From an uncultured Desulfospira sp. (GTDB lineage: Bacteria; Desulfobacterota; Desulfobacteria; Desulfobacterales; Desulfobacteraceae), in contig OY760175.1 of assembly GCA_963663165.1 (NCBI GenBank), positions 4,800,001 to 4,864,000 on the forward strand: a stretch of 64,000 nucleotides of DNA, read 5' to 3'. This document shows, one piece after another, positions 9,026-34,917 of the stretch. The notes beneath the pieces are model-generated. The model was given only the letters and a program-made list of their open reading frames with translations, was not told where the DNA came from and ran no database searches. The position numbers were made by a program, and so were the translations under genes. Each line of letters opens with the position of its first letter. Position 1 is the stretch's first letter.

Positions 9026-12000
9026 CTATGCCGGCTGAGCCTCCCAGGTGACCTTATGGTCGATCCGGTGTTCTTTATCCAGCCGGGCCAGTTTGACCAT
9101 CTGAAATTCGTTGATTTCAATGCAGACCTTGCCTGCTGAATCAGCCAGGGTCAGGTTATAGGTATTGGTTTCCTCTCCGGAGTCTATTTTCCGGGTGATG
9201 CAGTAATAAGGCGTGTTCTTTTCCGGTACACGGTAAAAATTCATCTCCTCAATTTTAAAGGGCAGCACGGTTCTGGAGGATGTCAGAAACTCCAGGAGTC
9301 CGCCGGTCTGGAACATGGCGTCCACCAGGACCGGTGAGGCCTGGAATTTGGGATTCTTCTCTCCTTTGAAAAATTCAGCCTCACTGCTGTCCTCAACCGT
9401 GGTGACCAGGGTGGTGCCGTCAAAGGAGTTGATATCCGTTATGGTGGCGAACAGCCCGAACATGAACAGCCGGTTGGGGTGGTAGACCAGGGAATCTAAA
9501 TCGCCCTCCCAGGACAGGGGAGAAAATGGCCCGATCTCAATGGTTTTTGAATCCGGCCGGGTTTCTGAAAATTCAAATACCCCCTGGTAATGAAGTTTGG
9601 GGTCCCCCATCACCTGTCCTTTGGGGTTTTTAAATACCGATTCTATCCGGCAGGCCACGGCCTGATCGTCTTTGAGGTCCGCCTGGATCATCAGTTCTTT
9701 GGGGCGGCCCTTGAGCAGCTTGATGCCGTAAGGGATATGAAAGTCCTTAAGCCTGGTGAGATGCTCCCGGCCGCCGGTTAGATTCCGGGCCGCCTCGGCC
9801 ATGGTCTCCACGCCGGTGGAGCCCAGGAACAGGGGCACATCCCCCATGGTATGGTCTTCAAGGAAAATGTCGCGGTTCAGGTCCAGGGTCCTGGCCCAGG
9901 CCTTGCTGTCCGGGGTATCTTTGATGGGGTCATCCAGAAAGGGGAATCCTCCGGGGTCTCCCAGGAGCCCGTCGATGTCAAACTCGTAATCCAGGCCGGA
10001 AAAAACCATTTCAGACTCTGTTCTGTCCAAAAGGTCGGCCATGAAGAATTTGACGCCCTGGTCCATGGGCAGGAATTTGATGCCCCGGTCTTCCAGGACC
10101 TTTTTCACCGTGGAATTGGTAGCCATGCCCACCCCGTCCCAGGCGGTCCAGGCATAGACCTTGTACGCCCTTTGAGGATGAAGCTGTTTTTGCCGCAACA
10201 GGGTTTTGCCCAGGAAATCGTTGGCCGCCGTATAATCGGCCTGGCCCTGGTTGCCGAACCGGGCCGTCACCGAGGAAAAGGTCAGAAAATACTTATAATC
10301 CTTTTCCTGGGCCGCCTTGAGCAGGTTCCGCATGCCTTTGATCTTGACATCCGTGACCAGCTCAAAGGACCAGAGCTCCTTTTTGGGGATAAACTGGCTC
10401 ATCTCCATGCCGGCGGCATGGAAGATCCCGTCGATTTCCGGGCAGGCATCCACGGCTTTTTTCACCGCCTCATAATCGGTGACATCGGTGCAGATGTATT
10501 CCACGCTGATCCCCTGGGACCTGAGATATTCCATATTGTCCACAGCGGTCCTGACCCGGTTGAGCCGGTCCAGGGCCCGCTTGATCTCAACGGGCTTTGA
10601 CTTTGGCATATCCTCCCTGAGCATGGCCATGAGCTCGGCACTGGTGGCCTGTTTGTCCAGGAATTTGGGGTCTGTGGCATAGATATCGTTGATATCCAGG
10701 ATCACCAGGTTGACCTTGTACTCCTGGACCACCTGTTTGATGATCTCATAGGTGATGCCGCCGGCCCCGCCGGTGACCAGGAGGGTGTCGTTGTCATTAA
10801 TGATTCTTTCAGTTTGATCCGGGGCACTGGTTTTCATGGACAATACATACCGCTGCAGGTCCTTGTACCCGGCCTCGCACCTTGGGTCATCAGACAACAG
10901 CTCATTGATGAACAGGTCGCTGATTTCAGTCTTGCTTTTCAAGGGGTGAGGGTAAGAAAAATCCACCACCTTGACCCGGGTATGTGCCATTTCCTTGTTC
11001 ACGGTTTTGAGCAGACCGGAAAGGCCCGCAAACATGGGATAGATGTCGTTGCATTCTTTCATATAGGGAAAGATGACCGAATCAAAGGCCATGGTGGCAA
11101 TGAGGGTGCCGGGCTTGTCCAAAACCTCATAAAGGGCCTGGATCAGGACAAAGGTGGATTTGATGGTGGTGTTCAGTTCCGGGTCTGATGCAAATTCATG
11201 GGTTTCCCGGTCAATATAGAAATCGAGGGGGGCCAGATGGATAAACCCGTCCAGATCCGGATGGCCGGACGCCAGTTCTTTTCCCACTAAGGCGGCGGCC
11301 CCAAGATCGGCAAAGGGCAGGGTCACATCCGGGTTCAGATCGGGATCACCCAGGGTGATTACTTCTCCCCCAAGGCGTTTGACCTGCTCGGCCACCACCT
11401 GTGCCATGCCGTGATGGTCAAGGGAAATCAGGATTTTCTTTTTCTTAAAATTCCGGCTTGACAGTTCGGGCAGGGCCGCCTCATTCACCCGGACCACCAG
11501 CCGTTTGATGGGAGAGGCGGGATCCGGAAGGGTATCGGTTTTGGCCGTCTTTTCATTGGCTGAGGGGGCAGGGCTCGGGCCCGATCCGGTTACCGGGATG
11601 GGCTCTTTACCGGAATGATCCGGTTCTGTGGCCCGGGACTCAATGTAGGCCGACAGCCGGGCAATGGTGTTCAACTCCCTGAGCTTAAGATCGTCGGGTA
11701 CATCAAATCCAAAATGGGTGGCCACTTTGCCGAAAATCTCCACCTGTTTGACCGTGTCAATGCCTAAGTCCGCTTCCAGATCCAGTCCCGGCTCCAGCAT
11801 GTCCACGGCATATCCGGTCTGGGCGGCAATAATTTCTTTTACCGTGTCCACAGGATCATTTCCCGGTACCGGGCCTGAGGTCTGGGGAATGGGTTCCGAA
11901 GCGACTGGGTTTTCCTGTGGCTCTGGTTTCGTTGCAGCTGTTCCCCCCCCGGTCCGGCTCACAATATAGTCGGACAGCCGGGCAATGGTGTTCAGGTCCC

Positions 12001-15000
12001 TGAGTTTGAGGTCATCCGGCACGTCAAACCCGAAACGGGTGGCCACTTTGCCGAAAATTTCCACTTGTTTAACCGTATCAATGCCAAGGTCTGCTTCCAG
12101 GTCCAGATCCGGTTCCAGCATGTCGACCGTATAACCGGTCTGTTCGGCAATCACGGCTTTGACGGTTTCCATGGGGCTTTCCAGGGTTTGAGGAGCCTGG
12201 GTATCCCGGGTTTCGAAAGATTCCGGCTCACGCTTTTCAGAAGGTGCTGCCATGGCAGGCCCAACCTTCTGGCTTACATAAGCGGCCAGCTTGTCAATGG
12301 TGTTCAGGTCTCGAAGCTTAAGGTCATCAGGCACGTCAAAGCCAAACCCTGAGGCAATGGTGCCGAAGATTTCCACCTGTTTGACCGTGTCGATCCCCAA
12401 GTCCGCTTCCAGATCCAGGTCGCCTTCCAGCATATCGGCGGCATACCCGGTCTGCCGGGCAATGATTTCCCGGATTCGTTCCACAGGATCGGGGCCTGTA
12501 ACCGGTTCTATCGATGCCGTTGCCGGTTCCACTGTTTGAATATCCGGTTCTTCAACCGGCACACTGTCATCGCCGGCCACCACGCACAGGGTATTGTCAA
12601 TGACCTTGAGTTCCGGGTGCGTTGAGCCCGTGATCTGCTTTAACCAGTTCTGATAGATCAGGTTGCCTTCCACCGGGTTTTCTTCCACCCGCTTGACAAA
12701 CATAAAGGCAAAATGGGAGCCGAACCCTGCAGACAGATGAAGCCCGTATTCGGCATTGATTTTTTCCCGGCCGGAAAAATTAAGGTTCCTGAACCGGTCC
12801 GGCACCTTTTGAAGGTTGGCAATGGGCGGGGCTTTTCGCTTCTGCAGGGCCTTGACCAGGACCACGTCTTCAATGGCTGCGCCTAAGGTGTGGCCGGTAA
12901 ACCCCTTGGTGTTGGAGATGCAGATGGTGTCCAGGTGGTCGGCAAAGGCTGATTCCAAGGCCGTGACCTCGGCATCGGCGGAGCCGCCCCGGGCCGGGGT
13001 ATAGGTTTCATGGGACATGAACAGCAGCTTGTCGGCATAATCCGTTTTGGTCAGGTTGTTCTGCTTCTCCACCTTGGCGATGAACTTGTTCATCTCCCGG
13101 GCCATGTGGGGCACATCAATGTTATAGGTATGATAGGCCGAGTTGGCGATATGGGTGCCCAGGATCTGGCACTGGCCGTTCATGCCGCGCTTGGCTGCGC
13201 ATTTTTCATCTTCAATGACCAGGCCCACGGCCCCGGCCCCCAGGATGGTGCCGTTCCGGTCCTCGTCAAAGGGTTTGGCCGCTTCAGACACCCGTTTTTT
13301 AATGGTGGCGGCGCCCAGGGCCAGAAAGCCTGAACCCACCCACTGGGCCTGGCGCGGGGAAGTGGCGTTCTCGCCGCCCACCACCAGAACCCGTTTGCAC
13401 CGGCCCACCCGGATCCAGTCCTCGGCAATGCCCATGGCCAGGGTGGTGGAGGCACAGGCTGAAGAGACCAGGGTGTTGGGCCCTTTGGCCTTGATGATCT
13501 GGGCTAAATGGGCCGAGCCTAAGGGGCAGGCATTGGCCAGGAAATTCCGGTCAAATTTATAGGTGGTAAAATCCGTTCTTTTCCGGGCCTTGGCCTTGAA
13601 AAACCATTCGGTAATCTCTTCTTTGACATTAAGATCGTTCACCTTTTCCATGAGGAAATAATAGATCTTTTCAAACTCCTCATAGGGTTTGAGGAACAGT
13701 TTTTCATAAAAGTATTTTTCAAGTTCGGCCATAAGGGTTTCGCCGTTGGGCCACAGGGAGGTGATGATCACCCCGGTTTCCTCCTGCATTTCCTCGGGCA
13801 GGGCAAACCCGTCCGGGATCAGGGCTTTGCCGTCTTTCATTTTTTTATACTGCATGACCAGGGGGATGTTGGCATCTTTAAGGGCCTCAATGCCTGCGGC
13901 AATGCCCAAGGACATGGCAATGTCATACTCTTCTTTGATCCCGTATTCATCGGTCAGGTTAAAGTATCCGAGCTGGCCGGCCAGATGGATCACGTCTTCT
14001 GTCTTGGTAATCTGGACAAACCGGGCATTGCCGTCGGGTTCTTTGAACAGCTTGGTAATGTTCTTGTCCGTGATCCTGGCCTGGTCTTCCTGGGACAGGG
14101 ATTCAATAAAATTTTTGCCGTTGAGAATGGCGTCAAAGTTGTCCTTGGCAAAGACGTGCCGGGCCTTTCCGGGAAGCCCTACGGATACCCCTGAAATCAA
14201 GATGCGCCGGGTGTTGAAATCGTACCGTTTGATGGCGTCAATGGCGGCATCCCGTTTCTTGCGCTGAAATTCTTTGTACAGGATTTTGTCAATCAGGCTC
14301 TGGTTGTCCTGTTTAAAGGATTCAAAATCTTCTGAAATGTCGGCCCCGGCCATATCGGCAAATGACAGCTCGTTGCTGACGTTTGCCTGTTCCGGTTCAT
14401 CCGGAAAAGGGTCAACGCCTGGCCGGTCAGGAATCTCTCGGACCGGCCGGGATTTGAACAGGGCGTTCAGGGAGATCAGGTACTGGCGGCAGGCTTCAAA
14501 GGATTCGACCTCGCCTTTTTTGGGGTCCACGGACACGGTGGTGCCGTATTCGCCGATATTGATATACTTGAGCAGGTTGACCAGGAGCCTGGACGGCCCG
14601 ATTTCAATAAAATGGGTTTTGCCCGAGGCATACACATGTTCAATGGACTTGATAAACTCCACCGGCGAGACAATCTGCCGGGCCAGCAGGTCCTTGATTT
14701 CGGTCACCTGTTTGGGATAGGGGGCGGCCAGGGTATTGGAGATGATTCTGCCGTATCCGGCCCGTTTAAAGGTTAAGGTATCCAGGTACTGGCGAAGCTT
14801 TTCCGACGCATCGGCCAGCAGCGGGGTATGGAAGGCCCCGGTGAGGTTAAGCTTCTTGAACATCACCTTTTCTTCTTTCAGGAAGTCGCAGAATTTTTCA
14901 ATGCTTTGGGCCTTTCCCGATACAGCGGTCTGTTTTTCACTGTTTTTATTGGTGATATAGATATCCGATACAAAGGATTTTCGGATCAGTTTTTCGGTTT

Positions 15001-18000
15001 TCTTTTCATTTTCAAAGACCACCATGATTTTGCCGGGCACTTTTAAGGTGGATTCATGCATGAGATCAGATCGTTTAATAACCAGGCGCATGGCATCCTC
15101 AAATCCCAGGATGCCCGAGCAGAAAAGGGCGGTATATTCCCCCACACTGTGGCCGATAAAATAATCCGGAGAAAACCCTTCAAGGGCCAGGCGGCTGCAA
15201 ACGGCGGCCGATGACAGGAATACCGCGGCCTGGGTATTCTGAGTGGAATTTAAGGACTCATCTTCTCCAAACATCAGATCCAGGAGGGAATAGCCCCGCT
15301 GTTCTTTGAAGATGGCCTCACCTTTTTCCATGACCTCCCGGATATGGGCGTCTGATTCAAACAGGGTCTTCATCATGCCCGGATGCTGGGCGCCCTGGCC
15401 GGAGAGCAGGGCCACGATGCGCTGCTTTTTGCCCCCGGGGCCGGCAGACCAGGCCGTGTCTGAAAGGACCCGGTCATCTTCGGGAACTGCCGTAAAGGAA
15501 ACATCCACTACATTATCCACTTTGTGTTGTTCCGGGACCAGGCGGGCCGGCAAGGCTCCCATGATCAAATGGGCATGGTTGCCGCCAATGCCGTTGACGT
15601 TGCTGGCAAACCGCAGGGGCCGGCCCGGTCTGGCATTGGTGAGTTCAAGGGCGGGTTTCAGGATGGCGCACTCTTTGATAATGGAGTGTTCCCGCTCAAA
15701 GTTAAAGTCCGGCAGGATTTTCCCCTTGGCATTCATGAGCATGAGCTTGGCCATGGCCACGGCCGGGTTGGCCGCCTTGAAATATCCGAACTGGGGCTTG
15801 ACGTTGCCGCAGTGCATGGGATGGGAAAAGCAGGCCTGGGTGACCTGTTTTTCAATCATGTCCCCGAAGATATTGGAGAACGCGAACAGATCCAGGTGGT
15901 CCACTTCAGATTTTCGGATGCCGCTTCGCCTGTAGGCCTGGTTGATGGCCGACACAAAGGTGTGTTCCGACGGGGCCAGCAGGTGATCCGGCACCGAAGA
16001 TTTGACCGCACACTCGTTGATTTCCCCCAGGATTTTCATGCCGGATTCGGTGGCCTTTTTATAGGTGGTCAGCACATGAATGGCCGCCCCTTCGCCCATG
16101 ACATACCCGTCTGCCCGGTCGTCAAAAAAGTTGCAGTCCCCGGATGAGAGCAGGCCTAAGCGTTTAAAGGCCATGAGAACCGCCGGATACAGGTTGCAGT
16201 CCACGCCCCCGGCCAGGCAGAAGTCCATGTTTTTTTGTTTTAAGTCCCTGGCCGCATTCCGGATGGCAATCACGGCCGAGGCGCAGGAGGCGTCCACCAC
16301 GTAGTTGGCCCCGTTCAGGCCAAAGTAATTGGTGATCCGGCCCGAGATGATATTGGACAACAGTCCCGGGGTGGTGTCTTCGTTGTTTTCGGGGATGGTG
16401 GACCGGATAACATCTACCAGCTGCCCGGCCACTTTATCCAGAACAGCGTCATCCACATCGGCGGTCTGTTTAATGATGTTGGCCAGCATCAGCTTTCTGA
16501 CCCTTAAGATGTTTTTGCTCTGCCGCTCCCCCGGTATGGTCCCGAGGATCACCCCGGTCCGGGCGGCGGCCTGTTCCTGTTTCAGCAGTCCTGATGATTC
16601 CAGGGCCTCGGAGGCGGCGGTCAGGCCGAACAGCTGGCCCCGTTCAACGGATTTGACCATGGTGGGGGGCATCCGGTATTTCAGGTTGTTGAACTGAAAG
16701 TCTTTGACAATCCCGGCTTTCAGGTGGGGCAGATGGTAATGGGATTTTTTATCCAGCCGGCTGTAGGCGTCATTGTCAAAGTGTTCACCCGGGATCTGAG
16801 ACAGCTGCTTTTCTCCGGATACCAGCTTTTCCCAGAATTCTTCGCTGTTTTTTGCGCCGGGTAGAAACACCCCTAAACCGGCCACAACAATCCGGTCGTC
16901 GTTAAAATCATAAGACAGGTCCCTGAAAAAATCCCGGGGCACTGGAACGTAGGACGGGGTCATCTCTTCTAAAGCCACGTGGTAGTTGATTCCCCCGAAC
17001 CCATAGGAAGACACGGCCGCTTTCCGGGATTGGCCGTCCCGGGGTTCCCAGGGCTGCTGATCTTTAACAATATAAAGGGAGGACCCGGACAGGTCATGGC
17101 TTGAAGACAGGGTTTCAAAATTTCCATTGGGGGGCAGCACCCCTTTTTGGACGGCCAGCAGGGCCTTGAGCAGGCCCGCCGACCCGGCACACCCGAGCAG
17201 ATGGCCGATCTGGGATTTAATGGAAGAGACCCCGGCCCTGGCCCCGGTGTATCCGGCGGTCAGGGTTTCAAGCTCGGCCTGGTCCCCGATAATGGTAGCG
17301 GTGCCGTGGGCCTCAATGAATTCAATCTGATCGGGGTGAAAGCCTTTTCTGGTGTTCTCATAGCAGCGCTGGATACTTAAAAGCTGCCCCTTGGGATTCG
17401 GGGCCGCAATGGCCTTGCCCTTGCCGTCGGAACTGGACCCGATGCCGTTGATGATGCCGAAAATCTGGTTGTTATCCCTGAGGGCATCTTTCATCCGTTT
17501 GAGGACGAACACCACCGACCCTTCGCCGAGAACAAACCCGTCGGCCCGCTGGTCAAAGGGATGTGATCCCGTGGCGGACAGGGTCCCCATTTTGGCAAAC
17601 CCAATAAAGGATTCCGGTGCCAGGTGGGTGTTGACCCCGCCCACGATGACCTGGTCAACTTCCCCTGACAGCAGCTCTCCGGCCGCCGCATCCAGGGCCG
17701 TGATTGATGAGGCGCAGGCCGCATCCACAATATAATTGACACCTCTGATGCCCAGATGCCGGGCAATCCTGGAGGCTTCAATGTTCAGCAACATGCCGTG
17801 AACCGGGTCATACCCCTTGTTTTCGCCTTCGATCCCATCCAGAAGGGCCTGGTTGATTTTTTCTTTTTCTTCGGGGTCAAGGGCCTGATAAGCCTCGGTC
17901 TTTTCCAGCATGGAAACCAGTTGAGGATACCAGTACTTGAGCTGAAGGTCATTGCCCAGTTCATTGGACAGGCAGGTGGCAATGATGACGGAGGTCCGGG

Positions 18001-20434
18001 AGGGGTCATCACAGGAAAGCTGGTCGTTCTCATTTAAAAGCCCGGCACTTTCCACGGCTTTGTAGGCGGTTTGAAGCACCATTTTCTGGCTTCTGGACAG
18101 TTTGTTTTCTTTATCCTCATCGTATCCGAACCGCTTTGCGTCAAACTGGAAATCTTCTATAATCCCGGCCAGGCGGGTATAGGTTCTGTCTTCGGCCGAC
18201 TTGTCGCCGGACAGGTACAGATCGGCGTTAAACCGGGATTCAGGCATCTCTTTGATGGCATAGGTTTTATTTAGAATATTGTCCCAGAGCTGATCCGGGG
18301 TCTGGGCGCCCGGCAGGGTACATCCAACCCCCACCACGGCAATTTCATCGTTGATCCGGTTTCTCGGGCTTGAAAATACCTCCAGTTGGTTAAGGTTTTC
18401 CCGCAGCCGGTGTTTGAACTGAAACATCATGGTATGGATATCTTTAATGGCGGTGACATCCTTGAAAAAGGCTAAGCTGTCCCCCACCAGAAAATTTCCT
18501 TTTTCCCGGTGTTCTGGCCCCTCATACCAGGTATAATGTTCCTCTCCGGGGTTTTTAAAGTCAGGCAAAAACCCTTTGGCCCCGATGAGCAGGGAGCCGA
18601 TGTTTCTTTTTTCAAAGGATTTTTTACGTTGATCCAGGGGTTTTTTCTCCCGGATCATGGCGGCCTCATGTTCCATCATCATTTTGGCAAACCCGGTGGG
18701 GGCGGTCCTTGAGGCAAGGCCTAAGGTTTTGCCGATGACAACGGTTTCGTTCTTTTCAATGACAATGTCCTGGTAGAGTTTCTGGATGCTCTTTGTATCG
18801 ACAATTTCTTTTGTGAACAGGTAGGCGGTCCCGGCCTGAATACCGATTTTAGCGCCTTTGGCCGCCAGAAAAGCGGTCAGTCCTGAAATAAAAAACGACG
18901 CAAAACAGGTGGAAATTCCGCCGGCAAACACCAGATAAATATCGGACAGGTTCCGTTCCGAGTTAACCAGCCTTGAGATGGCCGCTTCCCACAGCACCAT
19001 GGAGGAAAGGCTTCCCACATGGCCCCCGGCCTCGGCCCCTTCAAAGATAAACCTGCGGCAGCCGTTTTCCAGAGCATTGGCCATCATGGACACCGAAGGC
19101 GTGTGCAGGTAAGTCTTTGTCCCGGCCTTTTCAAGTTCGAGCACCTGGGAGGGAACTCCCCCGGCAAACAGGGCATAAGGCACCTTGTACTGTTTGACCA
19201 TGTCCAGATGGATGTTGACCTGGGGGTTAAAGGCCTCGATGCCCACCAGGCCCGCCCCGAAATTGTCTAAAGTCTGGGCCCCTTTTTTAAGCATGTCATC
19301 GGCGAGATCCTTTGGCAGGCTGCCCACGGCAAAAAACGGCAGGGCGCCCTGTTCCAGGACCTTTGAGGCAAATTGTGCGTTGTCCGTGATGTTGGCCATG
19401 GGACCTTGAATTAAGGGCAGGCGGGTGTTCTGATCTGCTGCAAAATTTGAATCCGGAACAATGGGATCAAACTGATCAATAAAGTTGAGGTTGTCGCCGA
19501 TGGTCGTAAAAAAAGAGTGGATCATCTGGCTCAGGTCTTTGGATTCCCTGGCAAAATCCTTGGCAAAGACCGCGTCCTGGCCCAGGTAAAATAAAGACTG
19601 GATAAACGCTGCATCCGGGTCATCCAGGGCGGTCATTTTTTCAGATAACAGATCGTACAGCCCGGAAAGGCCGTCAGGATTTTCGGCCAGGAGAACCGCC
19701 TCCTGTTTCAAGTCTTTTACGATTTTGGTCCCCAGCTTGGCAAACACCCGGAACCGTTCCTGGTCTTCAAAGCTGATTTCCGTGGAATCGCCTTCATCCA
19801 GGGATTCCAGAAGGGCTTTAAAATTTTCAGACACCGGGGCCTGGTCGGAAAGCAGCACCTGGGAATCCATGACAAATCCGGATACGCCGGCAGCCAGCAT
19901 GCCGGCCCCGGTATATTTGCCTACCCCGCCGTGGATAAATACGGGCAGGGACATCTGTTTTAAGTACCATTGCATGAGGATAAAGGATGAATACCGGGAC
20001 ACGTTTCCGGCCGCCTCATTTCCTTTCAGAATGAGGCCGGACGGGTCGGCCTTAAGGATCTCATCTGTCAGATCAATATCTTTGATTTCAAGAATAAGCC
20101 GGGTATCCCCAAAATTTGAAAACGCCTGGGCCATATCTTCTGCCTGGGCCTGTTTTGAAAAGGGAACCACCATCAGGTCCAGGTTGTTCAGATTTTTATT
20201 TTTGATAGCGGCAATCAGGGTTTCATCCCACCGGGACAGCCGGACACCAAAGCAAAAGGTCTCTTTGGACAACAGCAGTACCTTATGCAGGATATCATCC
20301 CGGCTTAAAAATTCGGTATCAAATACGGGCAGTGCCCCTGACGCATAGACGGAGTGAAAATACCGGATATCAAACACCTTGACCGGTGTGTAAATCATAA
20401 GGGGGAGTTTTGAGTTCAGTATTCTTGTAATCAT
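9026..20434 (-). CDS. Multidomain type I PKS / PUFA-synthase-like enzyme (2x FabK/PfaD-like ER, KS, KS0, AT, KS, 3x ACP, KR, DH), ~3802 aa
   Basis: EAGGH (ER); DAACASS/EAHGT/IGH (KS1); DASCAS (KS2); GQGAQ/GHSVGE/GAFH (AT); SACAS/SHETYT/TGH (KS3); 3x DLEADLGIDTVKQ; TGGAGGI and GQADY-x-AAN (KR); DHTMG and DAMFQ (DH). ATG at 20434 follows GGAG. Confidence 0.92.
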   Translation of the reverse strand: MITRILNSKLPLMIYTPVKVFDIRYFHSVYASGALPVFDTEFLSRDDILHKVLLLSKETFCFGVRLSRWDETLIAAIKNKNLNNLDLMVVPFSKQAQAEDMAQAFSNFGDTRLILEIKDIDLTDEILKADPSGLILKGNEAAGNVSRYSSFILMQWYLKQMSLPVFIHGGVGKYTGAGMLAAGVSGFVMDSQVLLSDQAPVSENFKALLESLDEGDSTEISFEDQERFRVFAKLGTKIVKDLKQEAVLLAENPDGLSGLYDLLSEKMTALDDPDAAFIQSLFYLGQDAVFAKDFARESKDLSQMIHSFFTTIGDNLNFIDQFDPIVPDSNFAADQNTRLPLIQGPMANITDNAQFASKVLEQGALPFFAVGSLPKDLADDMLKKGAQTLDNFGAGLVGIEAFNPQVNIHLDMVKQYKVPYALFAGGVPSQVLELEKAGTKTYLHTPSVSMMANALENGCRRFIFEGAEAGGHVGSLSSMVLWEAAISRLVNSERNLSDIYLVFAGGISTCFASFFISGLTAFLAAKGAKIGIQAGTAYLFTKEIVDTKSIQKLYQDIVIEKNETVVIGKTLGLASRTAPTGFAKMMMEHEAAMIREKKPLDQRKKSFEKRNIGSLLIGAKGFLPDFKNPGEEHYTWYEGPEHREKGNFLVGDSLAFFKDVTAIKDIHTMMFQFKHRLRENLNQLEVFSSPRNRINDEIAVVGVGCTLPGAQTPDQLWDNILNKTYAIKEMPESRFNADLYLSGDKSAEDRTYTRLAGIIEDFQFDAKRFGYDEDKENKLSRSQKMVLQTAYKAVESAGLLNENDQLSCDDPSRTSVIIATCLSNELGNDLQLKYWYPQLVSMLEKTEAYQALDPEEKEKINQALLDGIEGENKGYDPVHGMLLNIEASRIARHLGIRGVNYIVDAACASSITALDAAAGELLSGEVDQVIVGGVNTHLAPESFIGFAKMGTLSATGSHPFDQRADGFVLGEGSVVFVLKRMKDALRDNNQIFGIINGIGSSSDGKGKAIAAPNPKGQLLSIQRCYENTRKGFHPDQIEFIEAHGTATIIGDQAELETLTAGYTGARAGVSSIKSQIGHLLGCAGSAGLLKALLAVQKGVLPPNGNFETLSSSHDLSGSSLYIVKDQQPWEPRDGQSRKAAVSSYGFGGINYHVALEEMTPSYVPVPRDFFRDLSYDFNDDRIVVAGLGVFLPGAKNSEEFWEKLVSGEKQLSQIPGEHFDNDAYSRLDKKSHYHLPHLKAGIVKDFQFNNLKYRMPPTMVKSVERGQLFGLTAASEALESSGLLKQEQAAARTGVILGTIPGERQSKNILRVRKLMLANIIKQTADVDDAVLDKVAGQLVDVIRSTIPENNEDTTPGLLSNIISGRITNYFGLNGANYVVDASCASAVIAIRNAARDLKQKNMDFCLAGGVDCNLYPAVLMAFKRLGLLSSGDCNFFDDRADGYVMGEGAAIHVLTTYKKATESGMKILGEINECAVKSSVPDHLLAPSEHTFVSAINQAYRRSGIRKSEVDHLDLFAFSNIFGDMIEKQVTQACFSHPMHCGNVKPQFGYFKAANPAVAMAKLMLMNAKGKILPDFNFEREHSIIKECAILKPALELTNARPGRPLRFASNVNGIGGNHAHLIMGALPARLVPEQHKVDNVVDVSFTAVPEDDRVLSDTAWSAGPGGKKQRIVALLSGQGAQHPGMMKTLFESDAHIREVMEKGEAIFKEQRGYSLLDLMFGEDESLNSTQNTQAAVFLSSAAVCSRLALEGFSPDYFIGHSVGEYTALFCSGILGFEDAMRLVIKRSDLMHESTLKVPGKIMVVFENEKKTEKLIRKSFVSDIYITNKNSEKQTAVSGKAQSIEKFCDFLKEEKVMFKKLNLTGAFHTPLLADASEKLRQYLDTLTFKRAGYGRIISNTLAAPYPKQVTEIKDLLARQIVSPVEFIKSIEHVYASGKTHFIEIGPSRLLVNLLKYINIGEYGTTVSVDPKKGEVESFEACRQYLISLNALFKSRPVREIPDRPGVDPFPDEPEQANVSNELSFADMAGADISEDFESFKQDNQSLIDKILYKEFQRKKRDAAIDAIKRYDFNTRRILISGVSVGLPGKARHVFAKDNFDAILNGKNFIESLSQEDQARITDKNITKLFKEPDGNARFVQITKTEDVIHLAGQLGYFNLTDEYGIKEEYDIAMSLGIAAGIEALKDANIPLVMQYKKMKDGKALIPDGFALPEEMQEETGVIITSLWPNGETLMAELEKYFYEKLFLKPYEEFEKIYYFLMEKVNDLNVKEEITEWFFKAKARKRTDFTTYKFDRNFLANACPLGSAHLAQIIKAKGPNTLVSSACASTTLAMGIAEDWIRVGRCKRVLVVGGENATSPRQAQWVGSGFLALGAATIKKRVSEAAKPFDEDRNGTILGAGAVGLVIEDEKCAAKRGMNGQCQILGTHIANSAYHTYNIDVPHMAREMNKFIAKVEKQNNLTKTDYADKLLFMSHETYTPARGGSADAEVTALESAFADHLDTICISNTKGFTGHTLGAAIEDVVLVKALQKRKAPPIANLQKVPDRFRNLNFSGREKINAEYGLHLSAGFGSHFAFMFVKRVEENPVEGNLIYQNWLKQITGSTHPELKVIDNTLCVVAGDDSVPVEEPDIQTVEPATASIEPVTGPDPVERIREIIARQTGYAADMLEGDLDLEADLGIDTVKQVEIFGTIASGFGFDVPDDLKLRDLNTIDKLAAYVSQKVGPAMAAPSEKREPESFETRDTQAPQTLESPMETVKAVIAEQTGYTVDMLEPDLDLEADLGIDTVKQVEIFGKVATRFGFDVPDDLKLRDLNTIARLSDYIVSRTGGGTAATKPEPQENPVASEPIPQTSGPVPGNDPVDTVKEIIAAQTGYAVDMLEPGLDLEADLGIDTVKQVEIFGKVATHFGFDVPDDLKLRELNTIARLSAYIESRATEPDHSGKEPIPVTGSGPSPAPSANEKTAKTDTLPDPASPIKRLVVRVNEAALPELSSRNFKKKKILISLDHHGMAQVVAEQVKRLGGEVITLGDPDLNPDVTLPFADLGAAALVGKELASGHPDLDGFIHLAPLDFYIDRETHEFASDPELNTTIKSTFVLIQALYEVLDKPGTLIATMAFDSVIFPYMKECNDIYPMFAGLSGLLKTVNKEMAHTRVKVVDFSYPHPLKSKTEISDLFINELLSDDPRCEAGYKDLQRYVLSMKTSAPDQTERIINDNDTLLVTGGAGGITYEIIKQVVQEYKVNLVILDINDIYATDPKFLDKQATSAELMAMLREDMPKSKPVEIKRALDRLNRVRTAVDNMEYLRSQGISVEYICTDVTDYEAVKKAVDACPEIDGIFHAAGMEMSQFIPKKELWSFELVTDVKIKGMRNLLKAAQEKDYKYFLTFSSVTARFGNQGQADYTAANDFLGKTLLRQKQLHPQRAYKVYAWTAWDGVGMATNSTVKKVLEDRGIKFLPMDQGVKFFMADLLDRTESEMVFSGLDYEFDIDGLLGDPGGFPFLDDPIKDTPDSKAWARTLDLNRDIFLEDHTMGDVPLFLGSTGVETMAEAARNLTGGREHLTRLKDFHIPYGIKLLKGRPKELMIQADLKDDQAVACRIESVFKNPKGQVMGDPKLHYQGVFEFSETRPDSKTIEIGPFSPLSWEGDLDSLVYHPNRLFMFGLFATITDINSFDGTTLVTTVEDSSEAEFFKGEKNPKFQASPVLVDAMFQTGGLLEFLTSSRTVLPFKIEEMNFYRVPEKNTPYYCITRKIDSGEETNTYNLTLADSAGKVCIEINEFQMVKLARLDKEHRIDHKVTWEAQPA

Positions 20435-20492
20435 GTAAACGTCTCCAAATGGTTTTGGGTTCAGGTCTTGTGACCTCAATTCCCTTTTGGCT

Positions 20493-20509
20493 ATCAAGGA
20501 ACGTGCCAG
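20493..20509 (-). promoter_or_regulatory. Sigma54 (-24/-12) promoter of the PKS gene
   Basis: Minus strand CTGGCAC-GTTCC-TTGAT (one mismatch at -12) about 60 nt before the ATG. Divergent bEBP gene adjacent. Confidence 0.7.
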
Positions 20510-20537: not shown

Positions 20538-20631
20538 TTATATTGATTTATAGAAAAGGAAGTTTTCTTCATTAAAACCATCGACAATCGGCCTTGCATT
20601 TTATGCACATGGCATGTACAAAATTACCCAA

Positions 20632-20739
20632 TTGGCTTTTGGCTCTTAGCAATTAGCAATTAGCTTTTAGCTGCTTGCAGTTGGCTAACAGCTAACAGCT
20701 AACGGCTAACGGCTAACAGCTAACAGCCAACAGCCAACA
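20632..20739. repeat. Inverted heptamer tandem repeat (TTAGC-type arm / GCYAACR x8 arm)
   Basis: Eight GCYAACR copies at 20684-20739 and complementary TTRGC-containing units at 20632-20671. Related array at 26497-26570. Confidence 0.85.
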
Positions 20740-20751
20740 AAGGAAAATTTA

Positions 20752-22224
20752 ATGGCAAAATTCAGTCTGGATTCAGAAGAAAAGATATTTTTCAGGACGG
20801 TTTATCATGCGGCCTTTGCTAATCCTTTCAGTGAGTTAAGGGAAAAGCTGGACCGGAAAATTGCCGGCCTTTTTCCCTCCAACAACCCCAAACAGATCAC
20901 CGACATGTGTATCCGGGAGGTAGACCAGCGCTTAAGAAAGCTGGAGTCCCAGGGCCGGGGAGACCTTAGGCGGTATTCAGAAAAAGACCAGGAAACCCTT
21001 CGTGTGGTCTATTTGTTTGATATCTTTCATAAGTTCAGGGATGATTTTGACCGGCTTATCAATGACCAGATCAAAGCAGGCGATGCCCCGGTAAAAGTGG
21101 ACTTTGCCCAAAACGCCCGGCAGATGCTCATGGACCGTGGGTTTACGACCGAACAGTTCAGGCATTATTTTGCCCTGTCCTTTCAGCTCAGGCGGGCATT
21201 TTACTTTATTTCCCAGACCCTGGTAGGGGAAAGCCCCTGCATGCGGAATTTAAAAAAACACCTCTGGTACAATGTCTTTACCTGCAACATGCTCTTATAC
21301 GACCAGCAGCTTTGGAACCGGATGGAGGACTTTTCCACCCTGCTCTTGGGCGAAACCGGCACCGGAAAAGGAACCGCCGCCAGAGCAATCGGCCGAAGCG
21401 GGTTTATCCCCTTTGACGAAAAAAAGTCCAGTTTCACCCAGAGCTTCACCCAGGCCTTTTCTTCGCTCAACCTGTCTCAATACCCTGAAACCTTGCTGGA
21501 ATCTGAGCTTTTCGGCCACACAAAAGGCTCGTTTACCGGGGCGGTGGACGACTATAAAGGGGTGTTTGCCCTGTGCAGTCCCCACGGGTCAATCCTCTTA
21601 GACGAAATTGGCGAAATCCCCAACCATGTCCAGATCAAGCTGTTGCGGGTCCTTCAGGAAAGAAGCTTTTCGCCGGTGGGGGCCCACACGTCCTACCGGT
21701 TCCAGGGCCGGGTCATTGCCGCCACCAACCGGCCCAGAAAAGATATCATGTCCGGTAAGGTGTTCCGGGATGATTTTTACTACCGGCTCTGTTCAGACAT
21801 CATTGAAGTGCCTCCCTTGGCCGCCCGGATCAAAGAAAAGCCATCGGAACTGGACGATCTTCTGGAATTCACTATTTTCCGTATGACCGGCGTAAAATCA
21901 GAAGAAATATTGGTTAAAGTCAAAAGAATTATTGACCGTAATCTGGGAAAAGACTATCAATGGCCTGGGAACGTCAGGGAGCTGGAACAATGCGTTAGAA
22001 GCATTCTGCTCAGACGAAGTTACAGGGGAAAGGAAAGTTCCGGGACCCGGGAATTTTCCCTGGACCGGATTTTGGCCCGGGGTATCGAAGACCGGACCAT
22101 CGGCGTGCCGGATCTGGTCTCCGGATACTGCAGGCTCCTGTATGACACCCATGGCACCTATGAAAAAGTAGCCCGGGTAACGGGCCTGGACAGGCGGACA
22201 GTAAAAAAATATATTTTAGGATAG
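20752..22224 (+). CDS. Sigma54-dependent enhancer-binding protein with uncharacterised N-terminal domain
   Basis: GETGTGK Walker A, ESELFGH-x-x-GSFTGA, LLDEIGE, WPGNVRELE and a C-terminal HTH. Confidence 0.92.
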   Translation: MAKFSLDSEEKIFFRTVYHAAFANPFSELREKLDRKIAGLFPSNNPKQITDMCIREVDQRLRKLESQGRGDLRRYSEKDQETLRVVYLFDIFHKFRDDFDRLINDQIKAGDAPVKVDFAQNARQMLMDRGFTTEQFRHYFALSFQLRRAFYFISQTLVGESPCMRNLKKHLWYNVFTCNMLLYDQQLWNRMEDFSTLLLGETGTGKGTAARAIGRSGFIPFDEKKSSFTQSFTQAFSSLNLSQYPETLLESELFGHTKGSFTGAVDDYKGVFALCSPHGSILLDEIGEIPNHVQIKLLRVLQERSFSPVGAHTSYRFQGRVIAATNRPRKDIMSGKVFRDDFYYRLCSDIIEVPPLAARIKEKPSELDDLLEFTIFRMTGVKSEEILVKVKRIIDRNLGKDYQWPGNVRELEQCVRSILLRRSYRGKESSGTREFSLDRILARGIEDRTIGVPDLVSGYCRLLYDTHGTYEKVARVTGLDRRTVKKYILG

Positions 22225-22228
22225 ACTC

Positions 22229-23122
22229 ATGTTTTTCTTTCTTCCCCCCCTCATCAGAGGTTGTGCTTCCATTATTATTTATTTTTTGAACACCCTTGTT
22301 CTGACCGTCCCGTTGATCCTGTGTTCTCTTTTAAAATTTATCATTCCGGCTCATGGGTTCGTTGTCTGGATGGATAAATTTCTGATCGGTATTGCCACCC
22401 TCTGGATCGGCATCAATTCAAAAACCACGGACCTTTTCTGCAAAATTCACTGGGACGTCCACGGGCTTGAAAATTTAAAGAAAAAGGAATGGTACCTGGT
22501 GTTGTCCAACCACCAGTCCTGGGTGGATATTCTGGTGCTTCAAAAAATTTTGAACCGGAAAATCCCCATGCTCAAATTTTTCTTAAAAAAAGAACTGATC
22601 TGGGTTCCGTTCCTGGGGCTTGCCTGGTGGGCCCTGGATTTTCCCTTTATGAAACGGTATTCAAAATCTTTTCTGGCCAAACATCCCCACCTTAAGGGAA
22701 AAGACCTGGAAAGCACCAAAAAAGCCTGTCAAAAATTCAAGCATACCCCGGTGTCCATCATGAACTTTGTTGAGGGAACACGGTTTTCTCCCGACAAACA
22801 ACAGGCCCAGAGGGCCGAGTTCAACCACCTGCTCAAGCCCAGGGCCGGGGGAATCGCCTTTGTTTTGGCCTCCATGGGCGACTACCTTCACAAGATCATT
22901 GATGTGACCATTGTCTATCCGGAAAAAGTCCCGAGTTTCTGGGAGTTCATTTCAGGAAAAACCCGGCGCATCGTGGTTTACTTCAACGTGCTGGACGTGA
23001 CCCGGACCCTGAAGGGGGATTATTTTAACGACCCTGAATTCAAACAGGGCTTCTGCGAGTGGCTCAACGAGATGTGGCAGGAAAAAGACCGGAAAATATC
23101 CGGTCTTATTGCCGGGGGATGA
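22229..23122 (+). CDS. Lysophospholipid acyltransferase (PlsC/YihG-like)
   Basis: NHQSWVD (HX4D), FFLKKEL and FVEGTRF motifs; N-terminal TM segments. Confidence 0.9.
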   Translation: MFFFLPPLIRGCASIIIYFLNTLVLTVPLILCSLLKFIIPAHGFVVWMDKFLIGIATLWIGINSKTTDLFCKIHWDVHGLENLKKKEWYLVLSNHQSWVDILVLQKILNRKIPMLKFFLKKELIWVPFLGLAWWALDFPFMKRYSKSFLAKHPHLKGKDLESTKKACQKFKHTPVSIMNFVEGTRFSPDKQQAQRAEFNHLLKPRAGGIAFVLASMGDYLHKIIDVTIVYPEKVPSFWEFISGKTRRIVVYFNVLDVTRTLKGDYFNDPEFKQGFCEWLNEMWQEKDRKISGLIAGG

Positions 23123-26571: not shown

Positions 26572-28287
26572 CTAGATGATTGCGGCCAGTACCCCTGCGG
26601 CAAGAAACGAGGCCTCAATGAGAAATTCGTACTGGCCCCCGGATAAAAATTTTTTCTTTTGGGATATCCTTATCAGTAAAATCATAAAAAGGGGAATCAA
26701 CGCAAGCAAAAAAGCCGCCCCCGGCAGTATATGTAACATACTGCCCAGGGTCATGAGAAGGATATCCAGTATCAACACCCCGAAAATCAGGTTAAAACTT
26801 TTTTCTTCACCCAGCAGAATGGGCAGTGTTTCCCTGCCGCTGATCCGGTCGCCCTGTATGGCCAGGATGTCAAAAAAAGCGGCCCTTGAAAATGCAAGCC
26901 CCGTGGAAAATAGAAAAGCGGCCGGCAGCACCAGAAGCTTTCCCCCGTGGGCAACGGCCGGCAGAATACTGGTCACAACACCCCAGGCAAGCGCAATTAA
27001 AATGGTCTTGGAGCCGGGAATGTCCCTGATCCGGCTTTTCTTTTTATTCCAGAACATTAAAAGGGAAATTTTGGCCTTATTGTAGGCCAGCCCGAGAAGG
27101 GTCATGAGCAGCAGGATAAAAAAGGATAAAATCCCGGTGGAATAGGCCACATAAAGTCCGGCCCCACCGGTACAAAGGGCCATGGCCCTTAGGAAAAAAA
27201 GGTTTTTTCTGTAGAATTCCGCCCGACCTGGATTATTATATGTATCTGATTTTATGGTAAATATATTATTTAATACCTGCATGGACAACACATACAGCAT
27301 GGCGATCACCGAGTGCTTAAGGGAATGGGAAAAGCCCTGAATGGCCGAGCAGGCATAGGTCAGGCTCGCGGCCCCGGCCGCTAACAGCAGGTTGGTTTTG
27401 ATTAAAAAATCCCTTGCCTGGGCAAGTGCCCCTAAAACCGGCTTTCTTTTTTGAAAGGCATTTTCAATCTGAACGCAGGTACAGGTAATGATCCAGTTAG
27501 GGGTTGAGGCGCCGGCGGTAACCGCGATGGATTTGGCTTCGGCCAGCATGTTAAAATCCAGTTCTGCGGCATCCTCGATATGGACGGCCCGTGTGCCGGT
27601 TTCGGTGGCCACCTGGGCAAGCCGTTTGGTGTTGCCGCTTTGCCGGCCGCCCACAACGATGATGGCATCATTCTTTTGGGCCAGATCCCGGACCTCGCTC
27701 TGCCGTTTTTCCGTGGACCCGCAGATGGTATCAAAGATTTCATAATGGGGGGCGTGGGTCTTGCACCAGTCCTTGATCTGCTGGAAAAAAGCGGTGTTCT
27801 GGGTGGTCTGGGCCACCACCACGGCTTTTTCATATTTTGGCAGGGCTTCAAGTTGTGCCAGGGATGTGACAGGCCGGCCATTTGGCCCGGCATACCCGAG
27901 AAGGCCGATGACTTCCGGGTGTTTTTCGTCCCCCACGATAATGGCGCTGTACCCTTTTTTGGCATGGGTTTCCAGGATGACCTGAACCCGGATCACCCGG
28001 GGGCAGGTGGCGTTCAGAACGGTGAACCCGGCCTGTTTGAGGGCCTTTTGATCTTCTGGCGGGACCCCGTGGGCCCGGATCAGGACAATTCCCCGGCCTT
28101 TTTCCGGAATGGTGGAGATCTGGTGAATTCCTTTTCCCTCAAGCATTTCCAGGACCTGGGGGTTGTGGATCAGGGGGCCGTATGTAAAAATAGGGCCTTC
28201 AAACGAGTTGGACGCATCCAGAACCATGTCAACGGCCCTGCGGACCCCCATGCAGAACCCGGCCGTTTTTGCAATGGTGATTTTCAT
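26572..28287 (-). CDS. ispH: 4-hydroxy-3-methylbut-2-enyl diphosphate reductase fused to a UbiA-like membrane domain
   Basis: GFCMGV, IHN, RAHG, ATCP, TIC, SGN and AGASTP IspH motifs, then ~280 aa polytopic membrane region with FFDILAIQGDRISGRETLP. Confidence 0.9.
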   Translation of the reverse strand: MKITIAKTAGFCMGVRRAVDMVLDASNSFEGPIFTYGPLIHNPQVLEMLEGKGIHQISTIPEKGRGIVLIRAHGVPPEDQKALKQAGFTVLNATCPRVIRVQVILETHAKKGYSAIIVGDEKHPEVIGLLGYAGPNGRPVTSLAQLEALPKYEKAVVVAQTTQNTAFFQQIKDWCKTHAPHYEIFDTICGSTEKRQSEVRDLAQKNDAIIVVGGRQSGNTKRLAQVATETGTRAVHIEDAAELDFNMLAEAKSIAVTAGASTPNWIITCTCVQIENAFQKRKPVLGALAQARDFLIKTNLLLAAGAASLTYACSAIQGFSHSLKHSVIAMLYVLSMQVLNNIFTIKSDTYNNPGRAEFYRKNLFFLRAMALCTGGAGLYVAYSTGILSFFILLLMTLLGLAYNKAKISLLMFWNKKKSRIRDIPGSKTILIALAWGVVTSILPAVAHGGKLLVLPAAFLFSTGLAFSRAAFFDILAIQGDRISGRETLPILLGEEKSFNLIFGVLILDILLMTLGSMLHILPGAAFLLALIPLFMILLIRISQKKKFLSGGQYEFLIEASFLAAGVLAAII

Positions 28288-33881: not shown

Positions 33882-34917
33882 AGGGGTCAAGTCTCTCCTT
33901 GACTCATTATGGATTGTCGAACCAAGGCTGTTTTTTTTGATAAGTCCCGGTCATGGGAAAGACGTTGTTTGAACCGGTATATCACGGTACTGACTGTGCT
34001 ATAGCTGTCGATTTTGAAGTATTCTCCTATAGTTTTTAATGATTCCCCGCAGATTTGTCGCGCCAAAAACATTCCCATTGCCCTGGGTTCATTAAAAAAC
34101 GCCCTTTTTGAATAGTACAGTTTGTCTTCGTCGATATTGTAGACCTTACAAATGGCTTGTTTAATTCTGGCTATTTCGGGGGCAAGGCGCTTGGATTCAG
34201 GAACTTCAACGTGCTGTTTCTCCTCAAAAAATTGTTCTTTCACTTGTTCAATAAACCTTTTTCCGCCAAGAATAGCAGGCCATTTTTTCGGGTCTAAAGT
34301 CCGTAATAAATCATCATCGTCCGCTTCACCTATAAAGGCTCGATATGCGCTTGCCTGCGAGCCCGGGGTCGTGGCCAACATGGACAGGATAAAGGATTTG
34401 TGCAGCCATTCCCATTTTTTTGTAACGGAAAGATATCCTTCATGGCTTGACCATTGGTAATCTCCGGGCTTTGCAACTATTTTGGCGCGTACCGGATTTC
34501 GATGAATATATCGAACCAGTTGCAGCAAATAGTTTTCCTCTTCAACCACAAGGGCTTTGTATCTTCCCCGGAATAATTGCCCGTCAAAAGAATGCGCCTT
34601 GTTGAATCGTTGTGTGTAAACACCGTTTATGTGGCGCATGCCTCTTGACAAGTTCGCATCCGGAGTCTGGACCAAAAGGTGATAGTGGTTCGGCATAAGA
34701 CAGAATGCGCTGACACGCAATGCAAAAAGCTCGACAGCCTCAAGCAAAACATTGATAAAGCATTCATAATCTTTTTTTGACTCAAAAATTTTTTCTCTAC
34801 GCCGGCCACGATTTATTACATGATACCAGGCGTTTGGAAATTGTATGCGTAAGGGCCTGGCCATGATTATATTGATACCAGCAAGTTTTTAATGAGTCAA
34901 GGAGAGACTTGACCCCT
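33882..34917 (-). mobile_element. Y1/HUH transposase element with 28 bp perfect terminal inverted repeats
   Basis: AGGGGTCAAGTCTCTCCTTGACTCATTA (33882-33909) is the reverse complement of 34890-34917. The element sits between convergent stop codons. Confidence 0.85.
33887..34864 (-). CDS. REP-associated (IS200-like, Y1) tyrosine transposase with C-terminal DnaA_C-like HTH
   Basis: MARPLRI..YHV-x-NRG, MPNHYHLL (HUH), YIHRNP (catalytic Tyr), WSS, and C-terminal RAMGMFLARQ..SLKTIGEYF..YSTV. Confidence 0.88.
   Translation of the reverse strand: MARPLRIQFPNAWYHVINRGRRREKIFESKKDYECFINVLLEAVELFALRVSAFCLMPNHYHLLVQTPDANLSRGMRHINGVYTQRFNKAHSFDGQLFRGRYKALVVEEENYLLQLVRYIHRNPVRAKIVAKPGDYQWSSHEGYLSVTKKWEWLHKSFILSMLATTPGSQASAYRAFIGEADDDDLLRTLDPKKWPAILGGKRFIEQVKEQFFEEKQHVEVPESKRLAPEIARIKQAICKVYNIDEDKLYYSKRAFFNEPRAMGMFLARQICGESLKTIGEYFKIDSYSTVSTVIYRFKQRLSHDRDLSKKTALVRQSIMSQGET

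Follow-up and report, generated by a model that had tools for sequence, protein, structure and literature searches.

Carrier proteins are defined by a serine that carries the phosphopantetheine arm, and a carrier domain in which that serine is missing raises the question of how, if at all, it holds a growing chain. The question is posed by a large synthase gene in a stretch of 64,000 nucleotides from an uncultured Desulfospira sp. (GenBank assembly GCA_963663165.1, contig OY760175.1, positions 4,800,001 to 4,864,000), which we call the window throughout. The frame occupies window positions 9026-20497 on the minus strand and encodes 3823 amino acids if translation starts at the TTG at 20497, while the public protein record begins at the ATG at 20434 and counts 3802 amino acids. 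A Pfam and NCBIfam scan places its domains in the order FabK/NMO-like enoyl reductase (ER), two ketosynthases (KS1 and KS2), acyltransferase (AT), a third ketosynthase (KS3), three tandem acyl carrier proteins (ACPs), ketoreductase (KR) and dehydratase (DH). All three ACPs read DLEADLGID-T-VKQ, so that each of them has a threonine where helix II begins, in place of the canonical serine.

Based on comparison with related synthases, we consider it likely that the three ACPs are phosphopantetheinylated on this threonine by a family-linked group of Sfp-type phosphopantetheinyl transferases (PPTases). What makes this likely is the linkage of synthase and PPTase genes, the invariance of the threonine, a closed case in the archaeal genome G082, the existence of natural serine versions and the grouping of the organism's own PPTase. 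A previous sequence-only reading of this DNA had left three options, namely modification on threonine, some different use of the domains, or work with a carrier in trans or with coenzyme A (CoA); the comparative evidence favours the first.

The threonine itself is genuine. Re-reading the frame bore out an ACG codon at the pantetheine position of each ACP, and the flanking codons differ synonymously between copies, which excludes a single sequencing error, as had been argued from the letters alone; so do the 244 copies of the motif found in 80 of 81 genomes sampled from the bacterial family (Desulfobacteraceae), with no match for reversed-pattern controls. Divergence between the three copies amounts to 0.96-1.45 at synonymous sites (dS) and 0.09-0.20 at nonsynonymous sites (dN). 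Widening the motif pattern to serine, with threonine codons still included, added no match and is read as that only. Public contigs of run X1, matching 11000-11777 and 11756-13000, agree with the window at every position, although X1 may be the source sample itself. With three copies in different codon contexts, an intact frame of 3.8 thousand residues and the purifying selection described below, an explanation by sequencing error or by decay of the gene has virtually no chance of being right.

The position of the residue is that of the pantetheine attachment site. The ACPs score above the Pfam PF00550 cut-off and the threonine aligns with the pantetheine-bearing serine of solved ACPs. An AlphaFold model of one ACP, computed with an alignment of 53 relatives, reaches a pLDDT of 90, begins helix II at Thr38 and matches solved ACPs with TM scores of 0.8-0.87, consistent with the four-helix ACP fold.

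To avoid a bias towards threonine, homologues were picked by KS3 alone and not by their ACPs; sets picked by ACP (threonine in 550/558 and in 240/251) carry that bias and were not used as a test. In the close set of 120 proteins, the window's own included (73-100% identity over KS3), threonine occupies the site in 339 of 341 ACP matches. The remaining two end before it, so that DS was not seen in any close orthologue and DT holds in 339/339 scorable ACPs. The distant set, also of 120 proteins and drawn, going by their source names, from Actinomycetota, Acidobacteriota and other groups, has threonine in 283 of 284 matches, one ending before the site; it includes three partial proteins without ACP and several proteins with a single one. 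Over 260 proteins of the synthase family, the acceptor column holds 958 threonines and 10 serines among 975 residues, and all four threonine codons are in use (ACG 117, ACC 86, ACA 21, ACT 16). Relaxed selection was not seen either: against a genome of the same genus (G010), the ACPs show dN 0.010 and dS 0.437, a dN/dS of about 0.02 that is exceeded by most of the catalytic domains and by a wide margin in the linkers (0.27-0.35).

Several points weigh against taking this conservation at face value. Because the homologues are kin, their counts are a sign of constraint and not of independent events; two other ACP columns (TGY and NTI) are equally strong, at about 99% Thr/Ser; and serine and threonine are also favoured at helix starts. 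The threonine could be kept for helix capping or for chemistry of another kind, for example a direct O-acyl ester or some other cofactor, with the PPTase serving another site. A structural motif with a threonine where helix IV starts is described in the accessible text of PMC7949117. We regard this explanation as very unlikely: the threonine sits exactly at the pantetheine position, the alignment of relatives contains no conserved serine or cysteine elsewhere in the ACPs, and the Cys-His-His ketosynthases together with the AT chemistry imply, by established knowledge, a thioester carrier.

Natural serine versions of the synthase also exist. The PPTase-fused P0257 from Heimdallarchaeota and the synthase of genome G188 (L180:3427-14334, motif DSIKQ) carry serine in all their ACPs, and P0026 and P0256 mix both residues. 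The two all-serine members share the architecture of the threonine members and nest in two separate threonine clades, a single joint clade being rejected by the approximately unbiased (AU) test (p-AU 6.6e-50); consequently, serine and threonine appear exchangeable at a site that, judging from the alignments, tolerates these two and almost nothing else. Near-identical rows were omitted from the trees (119/267 for KR; 91 and then 46/270 for KS3; 45/89 for the careful PPTase tree). Taking all motifs together, the acceptor and the residue after it read TV 1400 times, SI 218, SV 18 and TI 2; this Thr-Val/Ser-Ile pairing is a possible case of size compensation, confounded by clade.

The synthase travels with one group of PPTases, a co-occurrence that had been proposed as a check and that proved positive, in fused or adjacent form. 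The PPTase is fused to the synthase in 20 of 349 proteins, 19 of which lack any Ser-ACP (five of these 19 also bear degenerate ACP-like copies), and lies near it in 36 of 77 loci in the available DNA, or 25 of the 41 full 20-kb loci. Genomes G222 and G252 have retained the fused PPTase despite possessing two further PPTases. In an alignment that includes Sfp and the human enzyme, the linked PPTases (n=56) carry the Sfp-type residues His, Asp-x-Glu and Lys-Glu-x-x-x-Lys, with His, Asp, Lys-Glu and Lys 95-100% conserved (Asp, Lys-Glu and Lys 100%; His 96%). The same His, Asp and Lys-Glu-x-x-x-Lys set is found in Sfp (4MRT/1QR0) and human AASDHPPT (2CG5), and the catalytic residues and mechanism of such enzymes are described in the accessible text of PMC2148441. 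The acceptors described for Sfp-type PPTases are serines. The synthase-linked PPTases are grouped separately from the HetI-like second PPTase found in the family.

Whole-genome searches placed neither a PPTase nor a further ACP in the window, in agreement with the sequence-only reading. The genome (96.7% complete) encodes one PPTase, distant from the synthase (G000:C1:1839354-1840079), and neither AcpS (TIGR00516) nor a second PPTase was found in it, while most genomes of the family have two. This single PPTase groups with the synthase-adjacent PPTases (support 100/99), apart from the second, HetI-like group of the family. Three observations count against modification on threonine: the AU test leaves a placement of this PPTase with the other group unrejected (p 0.072), no PPTase residue was found to track threonine use, only group differences being seen, and the fused PPTase of P0257, whose partner ACPs carry serine, shares most of the group-typical residues. 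A predicted complex of PPTase, CoA, Mg and ACP scored 0.88 against 0.58 for the best control, with an interface that includes ACP residues 32-39 and the catalytic Glu. The mark for this score is reached by 116/157 solved and 2/215 mismatched pairs; runs agreed in at least 87% of contacts and partner pLDDT was at least 90. Because like complexes have already been solved (4MRT, 2CG5), this prediction is a likeness only and does not show modification.

The closed case is an archaeal metagenome-assembled genome (MAG), G082, in which both ketosynthases, all four ACPs (all with threonine) and the sole PPTase match lie in one frame of 3258 amino acids (completeness of the MAG unreported). It bears directly on the possibility that the threonine domains are never modified and play a structural or docking role, the chain being carried by a stand-alone Ser-ACP or by CoA. 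Escherichia coli ACP with the S36T exchange is described as unmodifiable, non-complementing and not acylated in the accessible text of PMC3340395 and PMC13343975. Possible trans carriers are available in the window genome, namely a PfaA with Ser-ACPs, a nonribosomal peptide synthetase carrier and a stand-alone Ser-AcpP (G000:C1:6633587-6633820; L091:9588-9821) with no fab or other type II fatty acid synthase (FAS II) genes beside it. KS3, whose closest solved structures are FabF, is FabF-like, and enzymes of this kind use free ACP. Yet G082 shows no other ACP while its synthase bears an intact PPTase, 19 of the 20 fused members lack a Ser-ACP, and the all-serine members retain the same architecture. 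Moreover, visibly degenerate ACP copies have lost the whole DTVKQ motif, whereas the window ACPs keep it under strong constraint. We therefore hold it to be quite unlikely that the threonine domains stay unmodified. In one related locus (L029:13898-14257), a small frame downstream of the synthase has its own Thr-type ACP.

Should the threonine be the acceptor, Glu188 of the PPTase (241-aa open reading frame; Glu181 in the human enzyme) would, with a good degree of probability, activate its secondary hydroxyl for attack on the β-phosphate of CoA. The AT would load malonyl, KS1 and/or the FabF-like KS3 would condense, and KR, DH and the FabK-like ER would reduce; on this view the megasynthase is probably a fatty acid synthase of the ordinary kind, iterative and fully reducing. 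The single PPTase of the genome would then serve both threonine and serine carriers.

The remaining domains fit such a role. The catalytic residues of KS1, KS3, AT and KR had been judged intact, and indeed the ketosynthase Cys-His-His, the AT Ser/Arg/His and the KR Lys/Ser/Tyr are all present. The set of KS, AT, KR, DH and ER is complete, with catalytic residues as in an iterative type I fatty acid synthase, and across 259 proteins those of KS1, AT, KS3, KR, DH and ER show little or no variation. The Pfam and NCBIfam scan found no thioesterase domain in the synthase. KS2 keeps its active-site Cys in 143 of 148 proteins scored while both histidines are replaced by Phe and Tyr; on these residues it is likely non-condensing and possibly acts as a transacylase or chain-length factor (CLF). 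The ER has a weak duplicate in the first 320 or so residues of the protein. Coordinates are collected in Table 1.

Table 1. Features of the synthase gene and of its upstream region, in window coordinates.
Feature	Position	Strand	Basis or remark
Type S fatty acid/polyketide synthase (pseudo-ER, ER, KS1, KS2, AT, KS3, ACP x3, KR, DH)	9026..20434	-	Pfam/NCBIfam; homologue of HRM2 P0198
Degenerate FabK/NMO-like domain	19466..20434	-	PF03060 E 4e-4 (below cut-off); 23% identity to the following ER
FabK/NMO-like enoyl reductase	18398..19450	-	PF03060 and TIGR03151 matches; His493 in 145/145 scored
KS1, Cys928/His1064/His1099	16958..18349	-	Each residue 225/225 scored
KS2, Cys1405 kept, Phe/Tyr at both His positions	15548..16900	-	Residue scoring among relatives
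Malonyl-type acyltransferase, GHS1784 ... GAFH	14576..15406	-	Pfam/NCBIfam and residue scoring
KS3, FabF-like, Cys2348/His2496/His2536; family marker	12668..14245	-	Cys 253/253, His 259/259 and 257/259
ACP1, Thr2704 (ACG 12386-12388) at the pantetheine position	12272..12487	-	Pfam and alignment
ACP2, Thr2808 (ACG 12074-12076); predicted four-helix fold	11960..12175	-	Alignment and AlphaFold model
ACP3, Thr2915 (ACG 11753-11755)	11639..11854	-	Pfam and alignment
Ketoreductase, Lys3385/Ser3409/Tyr3422	10139..10786	-	Pfam/NCBIfam and residue scoring
PKS-type dehydratase, His3549/Asp3726	9080..9943	-	Pfam/NCBIfam and residue scoring
Sigma-54-like -24/-12 element, ~60 nt upstream of the ATG	20494..20508	-	1 mismatch to consensus
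Divergent sigma-54 activator, no recognised sensor domain	20752..22224	+	Sequence cluster in 24/77 loci

The sequence-only reading had missed that the enzyme resembles a fatty acid synthase, that Ser-ACPs and one PPTase lie elsewhere in the genome, and that the family has already been described. Types S and R were catalogued, with unknown products, by Shulse and Allen in 2011 (PMC3098273); in the accessible text of that paper, type S is uncharacterised and known from one genome, Desulfobacterium (Desulforapulum) autotrophicum HRM2. The HRM2 protein (P0198) is a direct homologue of the window synthase, 74% over KS3, with the same Pfam set and three DTVKQ ACPs, and stands among its nearest rows in the KS3 tree. 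Judged by sequence and domain content, the window enzyme is an uncharacterised Shulse-Allen type S synthase. Type R is described there as KS-MAT-CLF-ACP(3-6)-KR (MAT, malonyl acyltransferase) with a downstream PPTase, from Acidobacteria, Chloroflexi and Elusimicrobia. This core order and downstream PPTase, together with threonine ACPs, recur in our Acidobacteriota, Chloroflexota, Actinomycetota and Myxococcota loci. Unlike the window gene, type R has neither KS2 nor the pair of ER domains at the N-terminus, and the window's PPTase is distant; the "CLF" domain keeps Cys-His-His in the relatives and so looks like an active ketosynthase. The words "threonine" and "serine" are absent from the main text of PMC3098273, the part that was searched, its supplements lying outside.

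Members of the family, by named loci, occur in Thermodesulfobacteriota, Spirochaetota, Bacteroidota, Chloroflexota, Acidobacteriota, Actinomycetota and Myxococcota and in MAGs labelled Thermoplasmatota and Heimdallarchaeota. Among relatives with a name, those closest to the window synthase are Desulfobacteraceae. PfaA (TIGR02813) is similar in its tandem ACPs with related TGY ... LGID sequence and its KS-AT ... KR order. However, PfaA ACPs read DSIKR and not DTVKQ, the window synthase scores 858.9 against a TIGR02813 cut-off of 1010.1, and it has an extra FabF-like KS3, an in-cis ER and a PKS-type DH. Enediyne polyketide synthases (KS-AT-ACP-KR-DH-PPTase) activate themselves through a C-terminal PPTase, have a single ACP and are not known to have a second ketosynthase. 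By architecture alone, they resemble the 20 fused members in that PPTase. Among the open-access PMC and bioRxiv matches listed, none reports a threonine-pantetheinylated carrier or a function for type R or S; subscription papers, including older in vitro work on serine-to-threonine exchanges, lie outside that search. One phrase, "replaced by a threonine" (bioRxiv 10.64898/2026.05.19.726425), was set aside as it refers to a ketosynthase cysteine and not to a carrier. The synthase family is thus known, and the chemistry of its carrier, PPTase and synthase parts holds no surprise; what departs from precedent is the acceptor residue.

What the synthase makes is a separate question. We lean slightly towards its being the main fatty acid synthase of the bacterial family, supplying bulk membrane fatty acid, with a Ser-ACP Pfa system feeding the Ole olefin pathway. 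This role is proposed because the synthase occurs throughout the sample of 81 genomes from the family while none has fabF or fabZ above cut-off. KS3 is found in 80 of them (single copy in 78), and the one genome missing it is not the one missing the threonine motif. In a sample of the phylum (201 genomes), fabZ is missing from 6 of 8 synthase carriers versus 22 of 193 non-carriers. In the window genome, all six ketosynthase matches fall inside megasynthases and all 4 PF07977 (FabA/FabZ) matches inside two Pfa-like frames, with no stand-alone FabA/FabZ. This Pfa-like system is split into two parts 350 kb apart (G000:C1:461365-469155 and 814583-823420; L090, L102); its PfaA-like gene encodes FabA-type domains in addition to two Ser-ACPs.

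Other observations pull the opposite way. Below the cut-off, a stand-alone ketosynthase is detected in 22 and a fabZ-like match in 6 of the 81 genomes, two of the eight phylum carriers retain fabZ, and the synthase was found as sole elongation system in no bacterial genome examined, G188, G160, G222, G252 and G036 all having other ketosynthase genes. The threonine could be pantetheinylated while the product is a specialised lipid, and bulk fatty acids would then be taken up or be made by the Ser-ACP Pfa system. This alternative concerns the product only, is compatible with threonine pantetheinylation, and has in our estimate somewhat less than an even chance. PfaA-type ketosynthases occur in 75 of the 81 family genomes, and relatives of the synthase are found in actinomycetes and other taxa expected to own a fatty acid synthase, often beside an acyl-CoA dehydrogenase (15/77 loci). 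The synthase gene has, in addition, a sigma-54-type promoter and activator, and such control is unusual for a housekeeping gene. Set against a specialised product are the single copy maintained family-wide while FabF and FabZ are missing, and the oleA-, oleB- and oleC-like genes that follow the PfaBC-like gene. Shulse and Allen, in the accessible text of PMC3098273, likewise suggested type S for the role of core fatty acid synthase in HRM2, which is without fabA and fabZ.

In members that lack the ER, an acyl-CoA dehydrogenase gene lies directly upstream (L050, L051, L056, L057, L060-L063, L069, L070, L074, L076, L079, L082), and its product possibly stands in for the enoyl reductase.

PPTase-fused synthases also occur in MAGs labelled Thermoplasmatota and Heimdallarchaeota (L052/L135, at G082:C1:104000-123900, L053, L049 and L085). 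The G082 synthase adjoins genes for carboxyltransferase, biotin carboxylase, biotin carrier and BioY. Acyl-CoA carboxylase subunits lie beside the synthase in both L052 and L053, and L052 has BioY and an enoyl-CoA hydratase as well. Based on this gene content, L052 and L053 are candidate self-contained loci for archaeal type I fatty acid synthesis.

In the window alone, the sigma-54-like element upstream of the synthase is not beyond chance, but 16 of 30 related loci have such an element ahead of the synthase, compared to 0.004 per 260 nt of coding DNA. The divergent sigma-54 activator, whose place beside the synthase is conserved in relatives, likely regulates it. Between the two genes, at about 20625-20740, lie some eight imperfect repeats of 7 bases each, and after these comes an imperfect mirror of them. 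A promoter and terminator scan downstream of the synthase gave nothing beyond chance. Behind the activator is a YihG-family 1-acylglycerol-3-phosphate acyltransferase (22229-23122), which was not seen to recur as a neighbour in the related loci. Further along the window are a fusion of IspH (LytB) to a UbiA prenyltransferase-like domain (26572-28287) and an IS200-like (Y1) transposase that bears a DnaA-type helix-turn-helix at its C-terminus (33887-34864).

Taken as a single proposition, the reading has three parts: the carriers of a widespread, self-contained type I fatty acid synthase family hold their arm as O-phosphopantetheinyl-threonine, which a PPTase group of its own puts in place; among the sulfate reducers of this bacterial family, the synthase has taken over from FAS II as the chief supplier of membrane fatty acid; and the archaea of Thermoplasmatota and Heimdallarchaeota (Asgard) have it as a self-activating synthase accompanied by an acyl-CoA carboxylase. 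We give the whole a little under an even chance. E. coli ACP with threonine in place of serine serves as a dead control; a threonine-borne arm, if true, would be a natural exception spread across bacterial phyla and two archaeal groups. ACP domains annotated as inactive for want of the serine would then be active, and the PPTase/ACP pair may be orthogonal to Sfp and AcpS. The finding also brings two questions within reach of a test: by what route sulfate reducers without FabF and FabZ make their membrane fatty acids, and whether a bacterial-style type I fatty acid synthase exists in some Asgard and Thermoplasmatota archaea.

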